A stretch of DNA of 64,000 nt from Leptospiraceae bacterium (GTDB lineage Bacteria > Spirochaetota > Leptospiria > Leptospirales > Leptonemataceae). The stretch is from the NCBI GenBank assembly GCA_040217195.1, contig JAVJNR010000001.1, forward strand, positions 32,001 to 96,000, read 5' to 3'. Under the pieces are notes generated by a model. It searched no databases. It was not told the DNA's origin and was given only the letters and a program-made list of their open reading frames with translations. The translations under genes were made by a program, and so were the position numbers. Shown piece by piece: positions 46,396 to 63,152 of this stretch (its first letter is position 1; each line of letters begins with the position of its first letter).

Positions 46396-46456
46396 CCGAT
46401 AAAACAGAAAACCGGGTGAACCCGTTTCCACCTGTTATACCTTGATGGAGGAAAAT

Positions 46457-48514
46457 ATGGCAATGGGGCAGTTCCCAAAGAGTCCAAATAAAATCGACCC
46501 AACAGTTCCCAGCGCGGTGACTTCGCGTACCTCACTTGTATGGGAGGGTCGAAATAAGATCGCAGAATCAAAGAAAATTATCGATGATGCTGCGAATCGA
46601 GTAAAAGGGTTTGTACAGACTAAACTTCCGCCTGAGGTCCTGAAAGATGTGGATATCATGGCGAGTATCGAGGACAAGGTTTATAACTATGTAAACCAGG
46701 CCTATGTTAACATGTTCAATCGCTACACTGTAACGGTTGAAGATGAAATGGTGAAGAAGGTTCGTGATTTCATCGACAAAGAGGAATTGCGATCCCTGGC
46801 ACGTTACACTCCGCGTGAAATCGTGGAAGTGCTGGATAAGCTGGCCGGACCGGACAAGTTTAACACCGGTGAGATTGAAAAATCCATCGTAAACATGTAT
46901 GGTCACCTGCAAGGGCACATCCAGCGGGGCGTAAACGACCTTGAAAACGAAACTAACTCCATTCTTCGTCAGAAGACAGATGTGGGTGCTTTCGTTCGAG
47001 GTGAGAATGCCTACTCAATTGTGAAATGCGTTTTCAAAGACAATGCGTACAAGCCCAAGACTGTAACGGACATCAAACTCTCCATCAACATCCTGGACTC
47101 TGAGCTTATCAGTCCTATCTTTCACTATCAGACTACTGTAGAGTATCTGCTGAAAGATAACCTGGCCAATCACATTATGGAGCTGATTGACCGGGAGATT
47201 GAAGCTCTCAAAGAAGAGATCGTGGATAGTGGTCGGGCAGAATTGACCGACAACGAGGTGATGTTCGAGCGCATCAAGCTGGTGGATAAGTTCACTGATG
47301 ACAATATTTCTGATCCAAATTCTCGTCGTTACACGGTACTTGGTAAGAAATTTATCGATAAAATCGAGGGTCTGAGAGCTGAAATCGACCAGGAGGACTA
47401 TGATCCTCTGAACATGCGTGAGGCGATTAAAGAGATTATCGACTCAGAAAACATTCGAAACCGAGGTTTCAATACTGCAGTTAACACCCTGACTTCCATT
47501 CTGGATACGTCCAAGCTTGGTTATCAGGTATGCGACAACAAGAAGAATGCTCGCGACTGTTACATCCGAGAATACGAGGATGAAGATGAAACCCAGCTTC
47601 CGGATGAGAGATATTCAATCCGACTGGTGTATTTCGATCAAAGCCAGATTCGAGAACTGAAGCGTATCTTCGATACCAGAATGTCTGCTTTCATGCGAGA
47701 AGTGGATGCTGCGTGGGAAGTAGTGCATCAGATCTACGATCAGAAAAAATCCAAGTGGCTCGGTCTTAAGAAGACTGTGCTGGATTTTGAAGATCTGGCC
47801 AACAATGTAATGCCCAAGAAGTGGAACAAAGAGCGAAAAGAGCTCCACTCCGATCCAGATGAACTGAAATGGGATCATCTGAATTTCCGGGACACTACCA
47901 ACACCTTCGTAGAGAAGAATAACCGTACCTACACTGTAGAAACGCGAAACACTGCTCAGAAGATTCGCTACCTACGGGAAAAGCTGCAGGATATGTATGG
48001 TTACCAGAATCCGGTAGAACGAGTGGTTGTGGATGAGCGACTGACCATCCTGGAAAATCAATTCCACAAGTTCACTTACGAAATCAACCCGCACCATCTA
48101 CAGCCAGGTCTGTTGCTTGATGTGGATCTTGCTACCAGTAAGCGTAAGCAGTACATGCTCAAGGGCATGGCAAACGTTCTCAACGAATTCCTGCACGGGG
48201 TTTCTCGAGGATTCGCGGATGCAGCTTTTGCAACCTTCAAGCGTCGTCGATCCACTGTTCGTGGTGATGAAGAGATGTCTTTTGCCAGTCTGCCAGGTGG
48301 TGACGAAGGTCATCACGGTGGAGGCCACCATGGCGGAGATGATGAAGGCCATGCTCAATATGCAGCACCTTCAGCAGGGGGCGCCAATACGGACCCGGCT
48401 CCTTCGCCGTCGAGTTCCTCTGAAAGCTCCTCCGGCGGGGTAAAGGGATCAGCCGATGTGACTCCCAAGTCCTATGAGGATAAACTGAAAGACATGGGTC
48501 TTAAGGAACTTTAA
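46457..48514 (+). CDS. cfpA: Cytoplasmic filament protein CfpA
   Basis: Matches my recall of treponemal CfpA: PKSPN..P..PSAV.SR, NMFNRY..T.EDEM.KKVR, DKFNTGEIEKS.VNMYGHLQGHIQRGVN.LE, GAFVRGENAY; start re-called from GGAGG RBS. Confidence 0.9.
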   Translation: MAMGQFPKSPNKIDPTVPSAVTSRTSLVWEGRNKIAESKKIIDDAANRVKGFVQTKLPPEVLKDVDIMASIEDKVYNYVNQAYVNMFNRYTVTVEDEMVKKVRDFIDKEELRSLARYTPREIVEVLDKLAGPDKFNTGEIEKSIVNMYGHLQGHIQRGVNDLENETNSILRQKTDVGAFVRGENAYSIVKCVFKDNAYKPKTVTDIKLSINILDSELISPIFHYQTTVEYLLKDNLANHIMELIDREIEALKEEIVDSGRAELTDNEVMFERIKLVDKFTDDNISDPNSRRYTVLGKKFIDKIEGLRAEIDQEDYDPLNMREAIKEIIDSENIRNRGFNTAVNTLTSILDTSKLGYQVCDNKKNARDCYIREYEDEDETQLPDERYSIRLVYFDQSQIRELKRIFDTRMSAFMREVDAAWEVVHQIYDQKKSKWLGLKKTVLDFEDLANNVMPKKWNKERKELHSDPDELKWDHLNFRDTTNTFVEKNNRTYTVETRNTAQKIRYLREKLQDMYGYQNPVERVVVDERLTILENQFHKFTYEINPHHLQPGLLLDVDLATSKRKQYMLKGMANVLNEFLHGVSRGFADAAFATFKRRRSTVRGDEEMSFASLPGGDEGHHGGGHHGGDDEGHAQYAAPSAGGANTDPAPSPSSSSESSSGGVKGSADVTPKSYEDKLKDMGLKEL

Positions 48515-48666: not shown

Positions 48667-49614
48667 ATGAATCCCAAACTTTTTAGCTCTTTGAGTACGC
48701 GTACCAGCTTTAATAAAGTACTGCGTCACCTGGTAAGTGTATCCGGACTGATCGAAGCCATAGATAGAAATGAGAATCTGGCAGATCATCTCAACGGAAT
48801 GCTTGAGTCTGGACAGATCCAGAAGAACCAGGTTGGAGCCATTGTTAATGTTATTTTAAATAGTAGATTGCAGCTGCCCTTTCAGAGCAAGAATATGGAG
48901 GAGAGCATTTCTAGCTTTGTTCCTATTGTTACTTCCTTCTCTCGATGGAACGGAGTTTCTTTGACTCTAGTATACTATCATCCCACTCTAGGACAGCTAC
49001 TCGTTAATCCTGCCAATGAGGAGCACTGGGCTTCAGTGCAAGAGCTCAAAAAAGATGAACTGATTGTTGTATATGCTCGATCCAGGGATGGAAAACGCGA
49101 AACCGCTGAAAAAGCTCTAGAGGCTTTTTATCAACTACTGGCGGGAAAAGTACCGGAAGAAGCAGCAGGGTTTATCGACACCTCTGCTCCGGAGCCAAAG
49201 CCGGAGCCCAAACCTGCGGCTCAAGCGGCGCCTCAGCAGGCCGGCCCATCTGCCCAGAAGGCTGCAGCGCCGCCCACCGGGAAACGAAATATTACTCCCA
49301 AGTATTCTGTGCAGGTTACCAATGAGCTTTTCCACAATGGAAATGTGGAGGCCTGGAAAAACATTATTGAATCCTATGAAGCGAAGCATGCAGGAAACAA
49401 GGTAATTGTTTACCATGAAGGGGAACTGATTCAGGATTTGAATGCTCTTTTCAAATGGGGCAAGGTCAAGCATGGAGGGATCATCATGTTTCAGGTGGCC
49501 GGAGCACAGATCAAAGGTGTGAGCCGCTTGCAAAAATACCTGCATGAAGGTGCTTCTTCCAGGTTTGAATCATTTATGAAGCATGACATGAACAAAGTGC
49601 TGAATCTGTTTTAG
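48667..49614 (+). CDS. CfpA-associated protein with Pro/Ala linker and putative HPr-like C-terminal domain
   Basis: AGGAG RBS at 48654; N-domain, PEPKPEPKPAAQ linker, then YSVQVTNELFHNGNVEAWK...VIVYHEG...KHGGIIMFQVAG. Confidence 0.8.
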   Translation: MNPKLFSSLSTRTSFNKVLRHLVSVSGLIEAIDRNENLADHLNGMLESGQIQKNQVGAIVNVILNSRLQLPFQSKNMEESISSFVPIVTSFSRWNGVSLTLVYYHPTLGQLLVNPANEEHWASVQELKKDELIVVYARSRDGKRETAEKALEAFYQLLAGKVPEEAAGFIDTSAPEPKPEPKPAAQAAPQQAGPSAQKAAAPPTGKRNITPKYSVQVTNELFHNGNVEAWKNIIESYEAKHAGNKVIVYHEGELIQDLNALFKWGKVKHGGIIMFQVAGAQIKGVSRLQKYLHEGASSRFESFMKHDMNKVLNLF

Positions 49615-49634: not shown

Positions 49635-50360
49635 ATGTTTTCTGAACATTTTGCCCGCCAGACCGATGAGCTCAAAGGAGCCCTTGATAAACGCCTTACG
49701 GCTCGTGGTACAGCCGCGTTACCAGGTAAGGAAAAGGACCTCCGGATCTATAAAGAGTTCTATGAATATGTCAGGGATTTATTGCCCCCCTTGTTTTCTG
49801 TGGGGATGGGAAAGGTTCGAAGCAAGAAGCATGTTCTAAATCGTACGGTAGATCTAATCATATTCCAGAAATGGTGTAAGCGATTTCTGGATCTAACAGG
49901 TGGATACGTTCTGGCAGATCAGATCTTTGCTTTCGGAAGTATGGAAACGGATCTGGAAACCAGGCATATTTACAATCACTCTTCCATTACGGAAGCAGTG
50001 AAGACATTGTATGCACAGGATGCAGAGTTGGAAGAGAATGATCTGGTACCATGCTTTTCCATCCTGCTTTCCTTCAAATCTTCGATTCCGCTGCTTTCTC
50101 ATAAGAAGGCTCTGGAGGACATCGCTGTGGAGAAGGATATTGCATTGAATAGAGAGACAGACCTGGTTTGTGTGCTGGGTCAGGGGATCATTGTTAAGGA
50201 CTGGGAAAACCAGGGAGCCTTCAAGGTCATTGAAACCGGGGAGGACACTCTGATGTGGCTATACATTCTGTTACTCGAATATCTTGACAGAGATGGAAAC
50301 CTGGGCTTTGATCCAAGAGACTATATAAAAGAAAACAAAGATTACAGAGAGTATAGCTAA
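49635..50360 (+). CDS. DUF6602-like protein (restriction-endonuclease-like fold, apparently degenerate)
   Basis: VRDLLPPLFSVGMGKV...VDLIIF pattern; the expected EVK position reads SME; later DLVCVLGQG. Confidence 0.55.
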   Translation: MFSEHFARQTDELKGALDKRLTARGTAALPGKEKDLRIYKEFYEYVRDLLPPLFSVGMGKVRSKKHVLNRTVDLIIFQKWCKRFLDLTGGYVLADQIFAFGSMETDLETRHIYNHSSITEAVKTLYAQDAELEENDLVPCFSILLSFKSSIPLLSHKKALEDIAVEKDIALNRETDLVCVLGQGIIVKDWENQGAFKVIETGEDTLMWLYILLLEYLDRDGNLGFDPRDYIKENKDYREYS

Positions 50361-51544
50361 TGGGGGCCAATTTGAATGGCAAAGGGAAAACCTTAATCAG
50401 GTTTGCAGTATTTTTTCTACTAATCGGCCTGACTCAGTGCGGAGAGGAAGGTCGAGATTTTTACATGGTCATGGATACATCCGGATCCATGTCATCGGGC
50501 ACAATGGATGATGTGCACAAATCTCTGCCGCAAATCACTGATCTTCTAAAGAAAGGGGACCGGGTGCACCTGGTGCGATTTGATGAGTCCGCCTATCTGG
50601 AAAAGTCCATAGATATTGAAGGGGACCTGGATAAAGCCGAGGTGCTGAGCTGGGTAGACAAGCTTAAAGCGAAAGGTCGCTACACGGACATTGCCGTGAT
50701 GCTGCAATCCCTGAAGAAGATTCAGGCCGAGAACACTCCAGAAGGCAGAAAGTCATTTTTCATAGTCTTGAGTGATGGAAAAGACGATCCCGCGCCTGAT
50801 TCCAGATCGGACAGAATCAATCTGAAGGATTTTGAAGCCACGGATGCTCCTCCAGGACCCAAAAAAAGCTTTGTATACTACATCAGTCTGGGACCGGAAA
50901 AGAGCAAAGAACTGGAAGAGGGTCTAAAGGGAATCAGTCCAGATGTAAAAACCGTTGATACTTCCAGGCAGAATAAGCCCGGTACAGACGGACAAACGGC
51001 TGCCACCGGCGACGGAGATCAAGGCCAGAACGCTATGGATACCACCCGGGATGGTCCTATCGACCTTTCCGGCGCAGCCGAAGATATTGAAGAAAAATCT
51101 TCAAGCGTCTGGGATGGTCTCTGGAACAAGATCAGGGCTAACTGGAAATGGGTTGCAGGTGGCCTGGCTGCTCTACTGGCCCTGCTACTTTTAATCTGGC
51201 TGCGGATTCGTGGCAAGCGAGCCCACGTCTTAAAAGGGCAGCTTCACTTCTGGGAAGCCAGTACTCATCCGGATCTAGGTAAAACTGTGCGACTGAACAA
51301 GCTGGCCGGTAAAAAAGTGACCGTGGGAGAGAAGCCAGGAAGCAAGATACGAATTAAAGACCTGGGAGCAAGCCAGGTAGTTCTAAAAGGAACAACTAAA
51401 AAGGGAATACCCGTCCTGAAACCTGCGGGAGCAAAGGGCATTGAATTCTCTTCGCAAAAGACAAAAGGGATGATTTCTCCAGGAGATTCATTCCAACTGG
51501 GAAACTATAAATTCGAGTACAAAGATGGCAACGAAAAGGGATAG
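50360..51544 (+). CDS. vWA-domain membrane protein with C-terminal FHA-like cytoplasmic domain
   Basis: Signal/lipobox-like LTQC; MIDAS DTSGS...T...LSDG; TM WVAGGLAALLALLLLIW; ending PGDSFQLGNYKFEY. Confidence 0.8.
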   Translation: MGANLNGKGKTLIRFAVFFLLIGLTQCGEEGRDFYMVMDTSGSMSSGTMDDVHKSLPQITDLLKKGDRVHLVRFDESAYLEKSIDIEGDLDKAEVLSWVDKLKAKGRYTDIAVMLQSLKKIQAENTPEGRKSFFIVLSDGKDDPAPDSRSDRINLKDFEATDAPPGPKKSFVYYISLGPEKSKELEEGLKGISPDVKTVDTSRQNKPGTDGQTAATGDGDQGQNAMDTTRDGPIDLSGAAEDIEEKSSSVWDGLWNKIRANWKWVAGGLAALLALLLLIWLRIRGKRAHVLKGQLHFWEASTHPDLGKTVRLNKLAGKKVTVGEKPGSKIRIKDLGASQVVLKGTTKKGIPVLKPAGAKGIEFSSQKTKGMISPGDSFQLGNYKFEYKDGNEKG

Positions 51545-54110
51545 AAAATTACCTTCGGAATATCGTGGTCCAGAAAGGGCCTTTCAATTCGATCGCGATA
51601 CCTTTCTGATATATACGGGCATCCACGATGCGGACATGCGTCCGTTTTCGCGGATTGGTGCGGGAACTTCCGTACCGGCAGGACTGCTTCCGCAGATCGA
51701 GAACGTAGTCGTTCCGGAAGAAAATCTGTGGAATGTAGGTCTGGAGGCTGCCTGGCTTAAAGAGTCTCTTGCAGCCGGGTCCGGACATATTCGCTACGTG
51801 GGCTCCAAAGAGAGGACCACTCAGCTACATCGGTATCTGGATCCAAACGAGGATGAAATGTCCGGGTCCAAAGAGGATGCCGGTAATGATCCAGTGGAAT
51901 ATTCCTCCTATTCGGCTCCGGAAAAAGGGGTGTCTCAGAAAGACCGATGCACCATTACCTATATGGCCACCGGTGAATACCAGGTGACTGTGGGAGGCTC
52001 CAGAGTGCTGGACTCTCAATCCCTGAGCCGAGGGCGTATGGGCCTGGACCGGGAGTATGAACAGGTAAACAAGATTCTGTCCAAGCAAGGTCGACGGATG
52101 GAGCATGGTTGGTCCTTCTTTCCTCTGCAAACCGATGGAGATATGCTATCTGTGTACTGGGGTCTGCAGGGTAAAGGTCTGGCTCTTAACCCTCCTGTAG
52201 ATGTCCATTATCACTTCCTGGCAAATGCAATTGATCCAGAAAGACTGCAGATGGTTATTGCAGAAACGGCCGAATTACCCGGGCTTGCAGAGCAGTTTCG
52301 CAGAAACAATACACTGGAACGCCAATTCGGTGCTTATTGCCCGGAAATGGAAAGAATCATTCATCTAAAGCGGATGTATAATCGGGCTCAGGTGAAGACT
52401 TTCGATGATTCCAGAACCCTGCCATTCTCTAAAGAGACTGTATTCTTCTGCTCTCGATCCAAGAGTCATGGTGCTTTCGCGATGAAGGCAAATCCGGAAG
52501 CGGAATACCCGATGCAGATCATCTTTCCACTGCAAAAGGGCAAACAATCCCGCTCCTTCGATTTTACCAAAGGGCCTTTTGACCTAGAAATCATGCGCCT
52601 TGAGGAAGGGCAAAAGTTCGAAGGAGCCGGCTCCTATCTCACATTGATAGGTCGAGGTCATGCTTCGCCAAAGAAATTTAGCAAGTCTAAACTAAAAGGA
52701 GCAGCTTTTCCTCTACTGTCCGGAAGCGAATACAGGCTGCAGCAAATTGTAAATCTGTCCAATCTGGCCGATGAACTGTCCCTGGGCCTGAAGGGTAGTG
52801 AATTCGAACAAACCGTGCCGGAGCTACTGTCTCTGATGGGCCAGAGTGGCCCGAACCTGGATGAAGAGGCGGTACTGGATCTGCTTTATCGAATTCGAAC
52901 CCAGGCAGTCCCGGATAACATTCTGCTTCGAATTAATCTAGGGGAAGCCACTCGTGCAGTCCATAGTTACCTGGGTACTCTGAAGGATAAGTTCCCAAAA
53001 GTGGCCAAACTGTCCGAGAAGGTTTTCAAACGCTATTCAACCGATAAACTCAAGGTCCGAGACCTGGAAGCTCTGGAAGGGGCGGTGGCCTTTGATGTAT
53101 ATGCGGTACAGGCTCGAATCAGCATTCTGCAAGTTCGTCCGGTGCATGCACCTCGAATTGCCATTGTATTCCCTCCGGAAATCGATACTATCAAGGCCGA
53201 GCAAAAGGAATACAGGAAGTATCTAAAGGAACAGAACCGTATTCTGGACAAAGGCGACGAGTCTCCTTCGGAGCGAGCCACACTGGAGTTTCTAGAGAAG
53301 CTACTGGAAGAGAGACTGCATCTTGCAGAAGAAAGGGAACGGCTGGGTGATCTGCTCCAGGATCTGGATTTATCGGGGCCGGTGGAAGACAAGGGTGATC
53401 TCCCTTTCCACATGAAGCTGCCTTACTGGTTACGAAGAACCTTCGAATTCCTGCGAATTCCAGAATTCGTTGAATGGGTGAAAGGCCTGTTCGGTGGAGG
53501 CAGCAATCGAGAAAAGGGATCTCTGACAACCGGGCTGTCTGCCTGGCTACTGATTCCTCTGGCGGCGGTTTTGCTTGGACTACTCGGGTTGGGCCTGTAT
53601 GCGACCACTGATAATGAGACCGGAGAGAATTCGGTGGTAACCATGGTCAAAGGCTGGTTCTCCAGCGATGAGGCACCTGAATCTGAGGATCCGCTATATC
53701 TCACAGACTCCTCTTCCACAGATCCGGGAACACCCGAGGTTGCTGGACTGGATCCAGCCCTGAGCATTGCCGCTCCAGGAGGCATCCAGGAGAATCGAAC
53801 TGTTCCGGGAGAAGAGGATGTTCAGGTCACAGATCAGGAAGTCTTCCAGTTCTCCAATCTTCTGGCTCGAAGAAATGGGTTTGCGGCCCTGCGTGAACAA
53901 GACCCGGATCTGAGAAATCCGGACCTGGTCTTTCCGGGAGATCGATTGAACCTGCCGGATGGAAGAATCCTGCAGATTACTCCAGGAGAATATATCTGGG
54001 AGATATCAAGGAAGCAGTATAGAAAAGATATGGCCAGACTGCAAATCCTGGATCGGCAGGTGCGAAACCTGGGCCAGGAGTATCAAAAAAAAAAGAGCCT
54101 GATGTCCTGA
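51525..54110 (+). CDS. Large single-pass membrane protein with C-terminal LysM-like segment; possible -1 frame extension to 54211
   Basis: About 670-aa N-region with coiled coil, TM (AWLLIPLAAVLLGLLGLGLY), NPDLVFPGDRLNLP and PGEYIWEISRKQY. Confidence 0.75.
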   Translation: MATKRDRKLPSEYRGPERAFQFDRDTFLIYTGIHDADMRPFSRIGAGTSVPAGLLPQIENVVVPEENLWNVGLEAAWLKESLAAGSGHIRYVGSKERTTQLHRYLDPNEDEMSGSKEDAGNDPVEYSSYSAPEKGVSQKDRCTITYMATGEYQVTVGGSRVLDSQSLSRGRMGLDREYEQVNKILSKQGRRMEHGWSFFPLQTDGDMLSVYWGLQGKGLALNPPVDVHYHFLANAIDPERLQMVIAETAELPGLAEQFRRNNTLERQFGAYCPEMERIIHLKRMYNRAQVKTFDDSRTLPFSKETVFFCSRSKSHGAFAMKANPEAEYPMQIIFPLQKGKQSRSFDFTKGPFDLEIMRLEEGQKFEGAGSYLTLIGRGHASPKKFSKSKLKGAAFPLLSGSEYRLQQIVNLSNLADELSLGLKGSEFEQTVPELLSLMGQSGPNLDEEAVLDLLYRIRTQAVPDNILLRINLGEATRAVHSYLGTLKDKFPKVAKLSEKVFKRYSTDKLKVRDLEALEGAVAFDVYAVQARISILQVRPVHAPRIAIVFPPEIDTIKAEQKEYRKYLKEQNRILDKGDESPSERATLEFLEKLLEERLHLAEERERLGDLLQDLDLSGPVEDKGDLPFHMKLPYWLRRTFEFLRIPEFVEWVKGLFGGGSNREKGSLTTGLSAWLLIPLAAVLLGLLGLGLYATTDNETGENSVVTMVKGWFSSDEAPESEDPLYLTDSSSTDPGTPEVAGLDPALSIAAPGGIQENRTVPGEEDVQVTDQEVFQFSNLLARRNGFAALREQDPDLRNPDLVFPGDRLNLPDGRILQITPGEYIWEISRKQYRKDMARLQILDRQVRNLGQEYQKKKSLMS

Positions 54111-54415: not shown

Positions 54416-54489
54416 ACATCTAATCATCGGCAGAAGCGCACATTGAAAAGTATTTTTCTAAACGATTCCAGCCTGGAAAGGTGCCAACC

Positions 54490-55542
54490 ATGACTGTTTC
54501 CGAACTGGATCGACTGAAGCAGGAGAATGAAAAGCTCCTGGAGACCCTGGAAGTAAACCGCGTGGTCTCTTCCAGTTTGAATCTGGAAGTGGTGCTTGGA
54601 ACCTTGATGGAAAAGGCCAAGACACTCCTGGAAGCAGAAGCATCCAGCTTGATGATGGTCGATGATGAGGTGCAGGAGCTGTATTTTCATACCGTCCGTG
54701 GCGAAAAGAGCGATGCGGTGCGCAAAATTCGACTGAAAATGGGAGAAGGCATAGCTGGATGGGTGGCCCATGAAGGAAAACCTGTGCTGGTGCCTGATTG
54801 CTCCCAGGACCCCAGGTTCTATAAGCGGGCGGACCAGCTTACGGAATTTGTAACGCGCAGTATGATGTGTGTACCTCTGAAAGCCAGGAAGCGAATCATC
54901 GGCACCGTGCAGGTCTTAAATAAGACAGGCGAAAGGCAATTCGATGAATGGGATTTGAAGATATTTGAAGTGATGGCCGATCAGGCTGCTGTGGCCATTG
55001 ACAACGCCAGATTACATGAAATGGCCACTGTGGATGCCATGACCGGCCTTTACATGAAAGCGTATTTCCTTGCAAGGCTGGATGATGAGGTAAAGAGATT
55101 CAAAAACCAGGGAGTCCCTGTGGCGCTGCTGATGAGCGACATTGATCATTTTAGAGTGGTGAACAATGAATACGGTCATCAGGCTGGAGATGCGGCTCTG
55201 GTGGAACTGGCACAGGTTATTCTGGATACGGTACATGAGCTGGGCGGTGAGGATATGGCCGGCCGTTATGGCGGTGAAGAATTCTGTGTACTTCTGCCTG
55301 AAACCGGTCCAGAGCGGGCCATGGAAGTGGCCGAAAGGATCAGGAAAAACATCGAATCCAGGCCCATACCGATTGACGGCAAGGATGTGCACATTACCAT
55401 CTCCATCGGAGTTTCATGCCTGCCTGAGCATAGAGACCATTTGCAGGTATCCGAGGATATGGTTAAGTTTGCGGACGAAGCACTTTATATCTGCAAGGAC
55501 AACGGACGAAATTGTGTTGCCCTGTATGAACAACGGAATTGA
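54490..55542 (+). CDS. GAF-GGDEF diguanylate cyclase
   Basis: GAF (GEGIAGWV, RSMMCVPL, NK), DAMTGL, DIDHF..VN..YGH..GD, RYGGEEF. Confidence 0.93.
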   Translation: MTVSELDRLKQENEKLLETLEVNRVVSSSLNLEVVLGTLMEKAKTLLEAEASSLMMVDDEVQELYFHTVRGEKSDAVRKIRLKMGEGIAGWVAHEGKPVLVPDCSQDPRFYKRADQLTEFVTRSMMCVPLKARKRIIGTVQVLNKTGERQFDEWDLKIFEVMADQAAVAIDNARLHEMATVDAMTGLYMKAYFLARLDDEVKRFKNQGVPVALLMSDIDHFRVVNNEYGHQAGDAALVELAQVILDTVHELGGEDMAGRYGGEEFCVLLPETGPERAMEVAERIRKNIESRPIPIDGKDVHITISIGVSCLPEHRDHLQVSEDMVKFADEALYICKDNGRNCVALYEQRN

Positions 55543-55574: not shown

Positions 55575-58172
55575 ATGCCTGATTTTTATCCATTTAGCCA
55601 GAAGGGATGCACAAACGACGAAGAAGTCTGGGAAAAGTCCGGACGCCGTGGACAGCGAGCCTTTGAGCTGGCAGCCATGGGCCTTCCCATCGTCCCCGGT
55701 TTTGTACTGGATTCTGGACTCACCCCTAACATGGCCAGTACGAACCTGGCCCCCATAGTTAAAGAAGGTGTTGGTGCCATCGAAGAGGGAATCGGCCGAA
55801 AGTTTGGCGATATTTCCAATCCATTGCTGGTGAAGGTAGTTGTAAGCTCCAATCTGAGCCTGCCCATCTATCCCACAGTATTTAACATAGGTCTGTCCCC
55901 TGTAACCATGGCTGGCTTTGCATCATTGATTGGCGAAAAGTCTGCCTGGTTCGAGTATTGCTATCTTCTGCGAACTGCAGGAACGAAAATCTATGATATT
56001 GAAGCAGCCCGATTTGATGAAATCCAGAAGAAATATCCGGATACCGTAGAAGGGCTGAAATCCTGTGCTCAGGAAATGCTCGGTCTGGTTGGCAAAGATA
56101 ATATTCCCGACGACCCGTTGGAGCAACTGGCAGTAATCTGTAAGAACCTGGCCAAGCGCTATTATGATCCAGAAATGGATTCTGAAGATCCGGCAGCCCT
56201 GATAGTACAGGGAATGGTATTCGGCAATCTGGGCGAAGATTCTGCAGTGGGTATGTACAATACTCGCAACATCGTATCCGGTGACAATAACCTGGATGGA
56301 AGCTTCCTTCGCAATGTTTACACCCTGGAAAAGAAAGGGGACGATATCCATCAACTGGATTCTGCCTATCTGGACGAGCTAAAGAATATTGGCTCATCTC
56401 TGGAGAAGAAGTTCCGGGAAATCCGAGAAGTTAAATTTATCATCGAAAAGAAGAAGCTATGGCTTCTGAATCAAACCACAGTAGATCGAAAGTCCACTCA
56501 GGCTCATCTGCGAACCTTACTGGATCTTCTGAAAGAGGGTGTTGTAGAAGAGAAATGGGTCGTGGAGCAAATCCCTCCTGGTCAGCTGGCTACGCTTCTA
56601 CACTCCGTTGTGGATCCTGAGACCATGGAAAAGATGCCCACCATTGCCGGTGGACTTACCGGTGCTCCAGGAGCGGCAGTTGGTCGAGTATTCTTTACTG
56701 CAGACCGATTGATGGAGGTACATCGTGAGGCGATTCAAAAAGGTGAGGATACACGTCTTATTCTTGTTGTTTCTGCCTCCTATGCAGAGGACGTAAAGGC
56801 CATCGAAGTGGGCCAGGGTGTAATATCCAATGAAGGTGGATATTCGTCCCACGCTCCTGTAGTGTCCCGATCTCTAGGAAAAGTGAGTATTGTTCAGCCT
56901 GAGATGAAGATCGGAGCTGATTACCTGGAAATTGACGGCCATCGCATCAATGAAGGTGATTACGTAACCATGGATGCGCCGGTTTACAAGGCTCCTACCC
57001 TGGGAATTGGAAAGGCAGATCTGATCAGTCCAGATATCCATACAAATGGACTGGTAGAGTTCATTGCCATAGTTAAGAAATACATCACAGACGATTTTCT
57101 GGTTCGTGCAAATGCCGACCTGGGCCGGGATGCCAGGACAGCCAAAACCATGGGTGCCTATGGAATCGGGCTGTGTCGTACCGAGCACATGTTCTTTGCA
57201 GAAGATCGTATTCAGAGATTCCGGGAAATGATTCTCTCCAAAACCGAGGAAGAGAGACTGAAGGCTCTGGAAGACCTGCGGCCCATGCAAAAGCAGGACT
57301 TTACAGACCTTTTTGCTACTATGGCTCCTCATCATGTAACCATTCGATTACTGGATGCTCCTTTGCATGAATTCCTGCCACGCAGTGAAGATACTTTGAA
57401 CGATTATCTGAAGTATCTATCTAACAAAGGTGCCACCGCAGATAAGAAAGAAATCGAAGAGAGAATTGAAAGACTTCATGAATTCAATCCGATGCTGGGA
57501 CACCGAGGATGTCGAGTAGCGGTAACGTATCCGGAAATCTATCATATGCAGGTTAAGGCTATCTTTGAGGCAGCCTGCGAACTCAAGAAGCAGGGAACAG
57601 ATATCATTCCTGAAATCATGATTCCTATTGTGATGAACCCCAATGAGCTGAAGTTTATCAAAAACGGAAAGGTCATCGAGGGTAAATCGATCAAGGGGAT
57701 TCGAGATATTGCCAAAGAGGTCTTCACGTCCATGGGAATCGAAGTGCCTTATAAAGTTGGAACAATGATTGAGCTGCCTGCAGCCGGTCTGCTTTCCGAT
57801 GACCTGGCCCAGTATGCAGAATTCTTTAGCTACGGAACCAATGACCTGACCCAGACTACCTTCGGTTTAAGCCGGGATGATGCTAACTCCTTCTTCCCTG
57901 CTTATACAGAGTTTGACCTACTGGCAAACAATCCATTCCAGGTGCTGGGTAAGCCAGTTAAGGAATTGATTGGTATTTCTGCGGAACGGGGGCGGATTGT
58001 TCGACCGGACTTGAAGCTGGGTCTTTGCGGCGAGCATGGAGCCGATCCGGAAAACATTGAATTTTGCGTGGAAGCCGGACTGGATTACGTATCCTGCTCT
58101 GCTTACAGTGTGCCCATCGCATTGCTCTCTGTGGCTCAGCTCAATCTCAAGCGCGAAGCAGAAGCGAAATAG
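55575..58172 (+). CDS. Pyruvate phosphate dikinase-like PEP-utilising protein with degenerate nucleotide-binding domain
   Basis: Intact GGYSSHA (His426), GIGLCRTEHMF, IRLLD, NPMLGHRGCR, GTMIE, GTNDLTQ, GLCGEHG; ATP-grasp motifs substituted. Confidence 0.88.
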   Translation: MPDFYPFSQKGCTNDEEVWEKSGRRGQRAFELAAMGLPIVPGFVLDSGLTPNMASTNLAPIVKEGVGAIEEGIGRKFGDISNPLLVKVVVSSNLSLPIYPTVFNIGLSPVTMAGFASLIGEKSAWFEYCYLLRTAGTKIYDIEAARFDEIQKKYPDTVEGLKSCAQEMLGLVGKDNIPDDPLEQLAVICKNLAKRYYDPEMDSEDPAALIVQGMVFGNLGEDSAVGMYNTRNIVSGDNNLDGSFLRNVYTLEKKGDDIHQLDSAYLDELKNIGSSLEKKFREIREVKFIIEKKKLWLLNQTTVDRKSTQAHLRTLLDLLKEGVVEEKWVVEQIPPGQLATLLHSVVDPETMEKMPTIAGGLTGAPGAAVGRVFFTADRLMEVHREAIQKGEDTRLILVVSASYAEDVKAIEVGQGVISNEGGYSSHAPVVSRSLGKVSIVQPEMKIGADYLEIDGHRINEGDYVTMDAPVYKAPTLGIGKADLISPDIHTNGLVEFIAIVKKYITDDFLVRANADLGRDARTAKTMGAYGIGLCRTEHMFFAEDRIQRFREMILSKTEEERLKALEDLRPMQKQDFTDLFATMAPHHVTIRLLDAPLHEFLPRSEDTLNDYLKYLSNKGATADKKEIEERIERLHEFNPMLGHRGCRVAVTYPEIYHMQVKAIFEAACELKKQGTDIIPEIMIPIVMNPNELKFIKNGKVIEGKSIKGIRDIAKEVFTSMGIEVPYKVGTMIELPAAGLLSDDLAQYAEFFSYGTNDLTQTTFGLSRDDANSFFPAYTEFDLLANNPFQVLGKPVKELIGISAERGRIVRPDLKLGLCGEHGADPENIEFCVEAGLDYVSCSAYSVPIALLSVAQLNLKREAEAK

Positions 58173-62663: not shown

Positions 62664-63152
62664 TCAGTCGTCCTCTTCCTCCTCATCGGTGTCGCTATCA
62701 TCACTATCATCGTCATCATCAGAATCGTCCGAATCATCATCATCGTCGTCGTCATCATCATCAGAATCGTCTGAATCCTCGGCATCTTCAGTACCTTCAG
62801 AGAGCACATCCACAGGTTCTGTTTCTCCGATTTCATCCAGATCCTCTTCGGAATCATCGGTGACTGGAGCAGCGCTGGTGAGGATATCCATGGCCTCAAT
62901 GCTGTCTTCATCCTGCAATTCTTCTCTGAGTTGCTGCCTGGCTTCATCGGTGATGAAACTATAACGGATCATGTCTTCAGAAAGGGCCATCATGGCCTGA
63001 ACAGCAGGCTTTCGGTTCTTCCATTTACGGGGAATGTCAAGACGCTCAGCCTGATCAATTACCTCAAAGGCAGCCACTGCGGTGGCGTACTTATCGTTGC
63101 GGGTAATCTCTAGAAGTTTAAATATTTCGAATTCGCGGGGTTCTTTTGCCAT
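62664..63152 (-). CDS. rpoZ: RNA polymerase omega subunit with long acidic tail
   Basis: DKY..AV.A and KPAVQAM.AL omega-like motifs in the first ~70 aa, then an Asp/Glu/Ser tail. Confidence 0.6.
   Translation of the reverse strand: MAKEPREFEIFKLLEITRNDKYATAVAAFEVIDQAERLDIPRKWKNRKPAVQAMMALSEDMIRYSFITDEARQQLREELQDEDSIEAMDILTSAAPVTDDSEEDLDEIGETEPVDVLSEGTEDAEDSDDSDDDDDDDDDDSDDSDDDDDSDDSDTDEEEEDD

Follow-up and report, generated by a model that had tools for sequence, protein, structure and literature searches.

The catalytic roles of the nucleotide-site residues of pyruvate phosphate dikinase (PPDK) are well established. In Treponema pallidum, passages of two papers (PMC10013896, PMC8525777) assign the final, ATP-yielding step of glycolysis to TP0746; the former holds that it most likely makes ATP from phosphoenolpyruvate (PEP), AMP and pyrophosphate (PPi), and the latter places it among the highly expressed genes. 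In the published passages concerned, the Treponema orthologues figure as a PPDK and a hypothetical protein. The DNA analyzed here is a stretch of 64,000 nucleotides (the window) from a Leptospiraceae bacterium (assembly GCA_040217195.1, contig JAVJNR010000001.1, positions 32,001 to 96,000). It carries an altered PPDK paralogue of the TP0746 family, here called dPPDK (55575..58172, + strand, 865 aa), in a cluster with cfpA, the gene of the cytoplasmic filament protein. We consider it evenly balanced whether dPPDK works as an Enzyme-I-like phosphorelay that passes phosphate from PEP to a protein and is tied to the CfpA filament.

Sequence features of dPPDK

The dPPDK open reading frame (ORF) has no internal stop, and its start is preceded by an AGGAG ribosome site. 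The protein aligns over its full length with solved PPDKs and has their architecture, namely an ATP-grasp-fold domain (aa 1-340, 55575..56594, +), a swivelling His domain (aa 356-480, 56640..57014, +) and a PEP/pyruvate-binding barrel (aa 505-860, 57087..58154, +), the last with a branch-specific insertion at aa 698-703 (57666-57683, +). The predicted fold matches PPDK structures with a Foldseek E-value of 9e-69, and the model of the N-domain is confident (predicted local distance difference test, pLDDT, 81-96 by block, mean 88.7). On the PPDK model TIGR01828, dPPDK scores 675.6, under the cut-off of 843.45, and the second PPDK of the genome scores 1311.7; four dPPDK orthologues score 609-669, with all five tested members under the cut-off. 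The scores of dPPDK are likewise below threshold for Pfam PPDK_N (16.2 bits, cut-off 27), for Enzyme I (TIGR01417, 102.5 bits, cut-off 341.7, the best stretch being only 633-859 in the PEP barrel), for PEP synthase (TIGR01418, 103.7 bits, cut-off 739.75) and for NF004531, a model presumably tied to VadK (160.6 bits, cut-off 456). In a plasmid search, the top matches among the best 10 of 497 rows were ordinary PPDKs (<39%). A scan for promoters and terminators did not exceed shuffled sequences as regards promoters (12 versus 15.8).

A search with the N-domain gave 395 matches; the best 120 of them, the query sequence itself and 19 proteins taken from loci were typed as 110 branch members and 31 canonical PPDKs. 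A second set of 83 full-length dPPDK copies from 100 loci, whose genomes partly overlap those of the first set, gave the same residue pattern. Copies of about 965 aa (L014, L027, G017, G051, G083 and G090) align apart over their first 100-140 profile positions, which suggests, as far as the alignment goes, that they carry an N-domain insertion.

In the alignment to 2R82, from which the Clostridium symbiosum residue numbers are taken, the ATP-site residues K22, R92, D321, E323 and R337 correspond to R25, V89, E285, K287 and T302 of dPPDK, and the EDVVAGxRT segment of PPDK is replaced and shorter. Across the 110 branch proteins, the R92 column holds V, I, L or T in 108 and a gap in two, never R; the E323 column is K or R throughout and never E; K stands at K22 in a single protein; the EDVV motif occurs in none; and the R337 column varies, R being absent among its six commonest residues. 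All 31 canonical PPDKs keep the nucleotide-site residues and the EDVV motif that are replaced in the branch, so neither chance nor decay accounts for the pattern. Q335 is the sole identical residue among the six nucleotide-site positions, being kept as Q300 in dPPDK and in 110/110 branch members. The first-pass annotation, made from the window sequence alone, had described a systematically inactivated ATP-grasp domain. This description stands for R92, E323, R337 and the EDVV loop, which are the clear losses because Q335 is retained and only conservative changes affect K22 (to R) and D321 (to E); a loss of Q335 can be dismissed, since Q300 is invariant. Retention at shifted positions was looked for and was found for none of E323, R337 and the EDVV loop, while K87 may partly replace R92. 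PDB entry titles list the PPDK mutants K22A and R337A. A passage in PMC5507339 states that Arg95 and Glu324 of Flaveria PPDK take a direct part in binding ATP; they are presumably equivalent to R92 and E323.

The residues of the PEP/His half are kept in dPPDK: H455 (H426, codon CAC at 56850-56852), R561 (R535), R617 (R591), R665 (R644), E745 (E733), N768/D769 and C831 (C818). The first four are present in 110/110 branch proteins, and E745, N768, D769 and C831 in all members that cover them. The alignment to solved PPDKs thus bears out the retained phospho-His and PEP site proposed in the earlier annotation, as well as its reading of the regulatory Thr as Ser (T453>S424). In the branch this column holds S in 99, A in 10 and T in one of the 110 proteins. 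Control by PDRP at the Thr/Ser site was rejected, given the Ala in 10 proteins and the lack of a PF03618 match in the window genome (93.7% complete).

An old spirochaete branch with an apparently rebuilt N-domain

In a midpoint-rooted tree of the PEP barrel, built from 52 rows chosen from 141, 35 branch rows and 17 canonical rows were split with 100/100 support. From these sequence comparisons, dPPDK is judged to belong to an old spirochaete branch of PPDK. The relatives of the window copy come from metagenome-assembled genomes labelled Leptonemataceae or Leptospiraceae, and dPPDK was found in 40 of the 41 other genomes of the window's family, the lone exception being 67% complete. Between the window copy and three close relatives, the ratio of nonsynonymous to synonymous substitution rates (dN/dS) was 0.010-0.014 for the N-domain and 0.022-0.034 for the PEP barrel, with dS close to saturation; the corresponding values for two Treponema copies were 0.066 and 0.052. 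The intact ORF, the 110 relatives and the dN/dS values of 0.01-0.07 rule out a pseudogene or a sequencing error, in line with what the full-length ORF had first suggested.

Within the branch, identity is 41% in the N-domain and 63% in the barrel, compared with 58% and 59% among canonical PPDKs. The old ATP pocket has acquired a basic set of residues, with R25, K87, R284, K/R287 (K287 in dPPDK) and Q300 in 83/83 copies and K306 in 80/83. The His domain, which has many branch-specific conserved positions, shows 61% identity among branch members and 32% to canonical PPDK. When dPPDK is compared with the genome's own PPDK, the barrels are 50% identical and the N and His domains 27-28%. The N-domain therefore looks rebuilt and not decaying. 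The earlier notion of an inactivated ATP-grasp domain is right as to most of the nucleotide residues and is refined by the new invariant residues and the purifying selection. New constraint on the pocket, the His domain and the barrel insertion would point to a new ligand or partner, and the divergence of the His domain from canonical PPDK is what a new partner surface would lead one to expect.

Other PEP and pyruvate genes

The window genome contains a canonical PPDK with all motifs, two pyruvate kinases, an HPr gene adjoining an HPr kinase gene, and an EIIA. Its PtsI-like gene (L002, 8012-9691, - strand) is divergent (228.8 bits, cut-off 341.7); it keeps a His motif and the catalytic Cys and is located among flagellar export genes. 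Among dPPDK carriers, a pyruvate kinase was present in four of the five tested, a second PPDK-like match in most, and a further PEP-utiliser gene consistent with ptsI in 5/5 genomes tested. Since a canonical PPDK, pyruvate kinases and a PtsI-like gene are present, dPPDK would not be needed as PPDK or Enzyme I in the window genome, and this gene content supports the view that it is not the housekeeping PPDK. The first-pass annotation had expected genes of this kind to be taken for ppdK, and such mis-annotation is indeed seen in databases and papers.

The cfpA cluster

In the window's family, the gene order is cfpA, a TP0747-family gene, an unnamed gene, a vWA gene, a LysM-like gene, a GAF-GGDEF gene and dPPDK. 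The cfpA gene of the window (46442..48514, +) matches NF040882 with 869.6 bits (cut-off 500) and is followed by the likely partner of dPPDK, a 315-aa TP0747-family protein (PF27497, TP_0747_N; 48667..49614, +). Neither this protein nor the cluster with cfpA had been noted in the first-pass annotation.

Among 201 Spirochaetota genomes searched, the TP0747-family gene was found in 70, and the identical 70 genomes hold a full-length branch-profile match above 1080 bits, the next score being 784; a further 106 low-scoring matches outside those listed could hide additional fragments. cfpA was present in 69 of these 70, and none of the other genomes matched cfpA or the partner. The partner gene lies directly upstream of dPPDK in 64 of the 70 and 6 kb upstream in the window. 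In family f36 (G089, G075, G121, G156 and G068) the cluster appears to be split, as cfpA, the partner gene and dPPDK are all present on different contigs. In G067, a contig begins with the 3' part of a branch gene, and no match to the partner was found. In the sister family f2, 30 genomes yielded none of the three genes. The order cfpA-TP0747-dPPDK was seen in 19 of 20 loci examined. In a further survey of the best 80 of 541 loci, a PPDK-type match lay within 10 kb in 72 loci and directly downstream in 57, and cfpA was present in 73; three loci had no PPDK-type match despite at least 8 kb of flank. Locus L102, in which an untyped PPDK-type match lies 10 kb upstream, was left out of the directly-downstream count.

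Four genes stand between the partner gene and dPPDK in the window. They encode an unnamed 241-aa protein (49635..50360, +; in the cluster at 54/80 loci), a vWA-domain protein (50360..51544, +; 36/80), an 861-aa protein that has a hydrophobic segment and, at its C-terminus, a weak LysM-like match (51525..54110, +; 22/80) and a GAF-GGDEF diguanylate cyclase (54481..55542, +; 15/80), whose gene ends 32 bp upstream of dPPDK and is placed in the cluster mainly in close relatives of the window. The first three of these proteins could anchor the filament to the envelope, and the position of the cyclase gene makes a cyclic di-GMP link to the cluster possible. By eye, the cyclase has GGEEF and no RxxD I-site. 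One homologue of the 241-aa protein gave a faint DUF6602 match. His155 and His159 of CfpA, which are possible metal or phospho sites, are kept in 85/85 copies, and genome G005 carries three cfpA copies. Elsewhere in the window, 62664-63152 (- strand) encodes a protein of 162 aa whose long tail is rich in Asp and Glu and which matches nothing in Pfam.

The TP0747-family protein, a likely partner, and HPr

The model of the partner predicts two alpha/beta domains with the same order of elements and a low-confidence linker between them. The middle domain (aa 70-161, 48874..49149, +) has a predicted HPr fold without the His; its model gave solved HPr proteins as top structural matches (Z 8-9, root-mean-square deviation 1.8-2.4, about 80 aligned). 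The C-terminal domain (aa 207-301, 49285..49569, +) has a predicted HPr-type topology, and its His223 (codon 49333-49335) stands just before the first helix. This is the only His kept in 100/100 locus copies, 80 of these loci having been found with the His223 motif itself, and it is kept in 120/120 among the matches listed. Each of the two domains also aligns with one and the same stretch of BBE-like oxidases.

When the C-domain profile was widened with 22 distant matches and compared with HPr (HHalign), 80 columns were aligned and His223 fell on His15 of HPr. The score was 22.2, compared with a mean of 10.3 and a maximum of 16.6 in 100 column shuffles. Kinship of the His-bearing C-domain with HPr is therefore likely, as judged from the models and this alignment. 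Three other comparisons gave no such signal: the C-domain against the middle domain (HHalign, 24/100 shuffles as high), the stand-alone C-domain relatives alone against HPr (14.6, shuffle maximum 17.1) and Pfam PF00381, which matched 0/49 C-domains. The top PDB row for the C-domain profile was rejected as a chance match to a repeat protein. No equivalent of Ser46 is claimed, as the position holds S in 48, A in 32 and T in 18 of 100 copies and is gapped in the HHalign alignment. A search of the ESM Atlas returned nothing beyond the partner's own family. Prediction of a complex between dPPDK and the C-domain (aa 205-315) gave 0.13 against a mark of 0.32 with controls not folded, and weighs neither way.

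The stand-alone C-domain relatives (P0522, P0527, P0529, P0532, P0533, P0537-P0540, P0546 and P0547) are 108-129 aa long and mostly lack the His; two of them are named from SAR324 or Deltaproteobacteria. P0237, a full partner protein, is named from Ca. Lambdaproteobacteria, and the system may thus extend outside the spirochaetes.

The Treponema copies

Locus L008 encodes a protein that matches T. pallidum TP_0747 exactly; cfpA lies upstream of it and, downstream, a branch member of 901 aa carries the same substitutions as dPPDK. The identity of this branch member as TP0746 rests on adjacency to the exact TP0747 match and on published single-nucleotide variant positions that fall inside it, as given in a passage of PMC10013896. 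The T. pallidum genome searched (99% complete) gave a single PPDK-type match, of the altered kind, and neither a pyruvate kinase nor a PPDK_N match was found in it. GTP-dependent PEP carboxykinase (PEPCK) and OadA are present, which would allow a bypass from PEP to pyruvate. T. denticola has both the altered and the canonical kind. Since TP0746 shares the substitutions, and the searched genome yielded no pyruvate kinase or canonical PPDK, its annotation as an ATP-yielding glycolytic PPDK is put in doubt. In one expression table of PMC3914990, TDE0842-0844 are lowered together, if the tags are assigned to loci by gene order. At the T. pallidum locus, one RNA contig of one run covers all three genes; this cannot show a transcript and was not counted.

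Possible function of dPPDK

Transfer of phosphate from PEP to the His needs only the barrel and the His domain and matches the geometry of Enzyme I, according to a passage in PMC5371819. As these two domains suffice and resemble Enzyme I, autophosphorylation from PEP would, by analogy, be the safest assumption. In the phosphorelay favored here, the phosphate of PEP would be taken onto His426 of dPPDK, by the half-reaction that PPDK and Enzyme I share, and phospho-His426 would hand it to His223 of the TP0747-family protein, the putative acceptor. Docking and transfer may take place at the basic pocket of the rebuilt ATP-grasp domain together with the remodelled His domain, and the relay would signal the PEP/pyruvate ratio to the filament apparatus of CfpA. 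In favor of this relay count the kept His and PEP-site residues, the co-occurrence and adjacency of dPPDK with the TP0747-family gene and cfpA, the HPr matches of the middle domain, the conserved His223 in register with His15, the divergence of the His domain from canonical PPDK, the joint behavior of TDE0842-0844 in the expression table, and the canonical PPDK and pyruvate kinases that already serve metabolism in the window genome. A more far-reaching version can be put forward only tentatively, and we doubt that it will hold in full: here dPPDK would form a second, independently built PEP phosphorelay, in which the ex-ATP pocket docks an HPr-fold acceptor, the PEP/pyruvate ratio acts on CfpA assembly or anchoring, and T. 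pallidum, having neither a pyruvate kinase nor a true PPDK, must obtain its pyruvate via PEPCK and oxaloacetate decarboxylase.

Several points weigh against the phosphorelay. By family match, dPPDK lacks the helical subdomain with which Enzyme I binds HPr, and the sequence pattern of its invariant basic pocket could equally serve to bind a small anion. In the middle domain, which gives the clearest structural match to HPr, the His15 position is Phe84 (by range offset), with Phe in 120/140. In the structural search, no HPr row appeared for the C-domain that bears the His; only the best alignment of each chain is displayed, for which reason the rows for this domain are other alpha/beta domains (Z at most 6.5). 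The HHalign probability of the widened profile against HPr is only 21.7%, profiles of close members gave no signal above shuffles in either local or global mode, and the C-domain profile retrieved no HPr from PDB sequences or Pfam. Arg17 of HPr (HxRP motif) is not kept after His223. Among the 22 distant C-domain relatives, eight keep the His and 14 do not, so the fold also occurs in its absence. The genomes in which the genes co-occur are kin and not independent, and the co-occurrence therefore speaks for linkage only and not for a mechanism. Finally, no further kinase match for the step from PEP to pyruvate was found in T. pallidum, which would favor a metabolic role, though PEPCK and OadA are present there.

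Some of these points speak for a sensor of PEP and pyruvate that passes no phosphate on, in which phosphorylation of His426 by PEP would shift the swivelling domain and control binding to the partner or to CfpA, the HPr-type folds being binding modules only. The best HPr match, the middle domain, lacks the His, as do the 14 distant relatives, and Arg17 is absent; the branch-specific surface positions and the insertion suit protein binding, and the titles of solved HPr complexes show HPr as a binding regulator. Conservation of His223 and its loop in the locus copies and listed matches, in register with His15, makes a sensor rather unlikely.

Somewhat less likely still is a small-molecule phosphotransferase, in which phospho-His426 would pass its phosphate to an anion in the rebuilt pocket (for example inorganic phosphate to give PPi, or a nucleotide without the Mg-binding glutamate), so that PEP becomes pyruvate with its energy conserved. 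The invariant R25, K87, R284, K/R287 and Q300, the near-invariant K306 and the strong purifying selection would suit such an acceptor, as would the missing pyruvate kinase and PPDK_N matches in T. pallidum and the high expression of TP0746 mentioned in PMC8525777. It leaves the tight link to cfpA and to an HPr-fold gene unexplained, however; most carriers have a second PPDK-like match, four of five tested have pyruvate kinase, and T. pallidum has the PEPCK and OadA bypass.

It is very improbable that dPPDK is an ordinary dikinase in which K87 and K287 take the place of R92 and E323. In favor of this are the retained fold with its three domains, the conservative nature of K22>R and D321>E, the retention of Q335 and the position of K87 two residues off the R92 column, but the charge of E323 is reversed in 110/110, R337 varies freely, the EDVV loop is gone, the presumed Flaveria equivalents take a direct part in binding ATP in the passage cited above (PMC5507339), and 5/5 tested members fall under the TIGR01828 cut-off. 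Equally improbable is a spare Enzyme I for ordinary HPr or EIIA-Ntr, or an inert component of the filament structure, since, although the genome has HPr, HPr kinase, EIIA and a divergent PtsI-like gene (228.8 bits vs 341.7), 5/5 tested genomes have a further gene consistent with ptsI, the dPPDK gene tracks cfpA, and the catalytic residues are invariant.

If the phosphorelay is correct, the poorly understood CfpA filament would gain a defined signalling input, and a PPDK scaffold would have been turned, on its PEP side, to protein phosphotransfer or sensing, as the converse of VadK.

Comparison with known systems

Open-access full texts yielded no account of the altered site, of the HPr-like partner or of the CfpA link, subscription papers and supplements lying outside this search; the portion of PMC8100219 consulted does not mention spirochaetes. 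The orthologues TP0746/TP0747/CfpA of T. pallidum and TDE0844/0843/0842 of T. denticola have the same order and the same substitutions as the window, whereas the window's family has four genes between the partner and dPPDK. With PPDK (EC 2.7.9.1; TIGR01828; 1DIK/1KBL, 1VBG, 5JVL), dPPDK shares the three-domain layout, the fold, the phospho-His and the PEP-site residues; it differs in the replaced R92, E323, R337 and EDVV loop, in its separate branch and in scoring below the family cut-off. With Enzyme I and HPr of the PEP-dependent phosphotransferase system (PTS), including the regulatory EI-Ntr/NPr, it shares a homologous PEP barrel with the catalytic Cys and the His domain. Enzyme I needs no ATP site, and dPPDK is co-inherited with a His-bearing protein of predicted HPr fold. 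Unlike Enzyme I, dPPDK keeps an ATP-grasp fold where the former has its HPr-binding helical subdomain; its partner, unlike HPr, is a two-domain protein of 300-380 aa with no Pfam PTS-HPr match, and its cluster, unlike the PTS, has no EIIA or permease and is linked to a filament gene. A precedent is VadK (Rv1127c) of Mycobacterium tuberculosis, which passages of PMC13400623 present as a PPDK descendant that moved from metabolism to regulation through His phosphorylation. According to the same passages, VadK is truncated, retains the ATP-grasp and His domains and uses ATP to phosphorylate itself, whereas dPPDK keeps the PEP half and has an altered ATP site.

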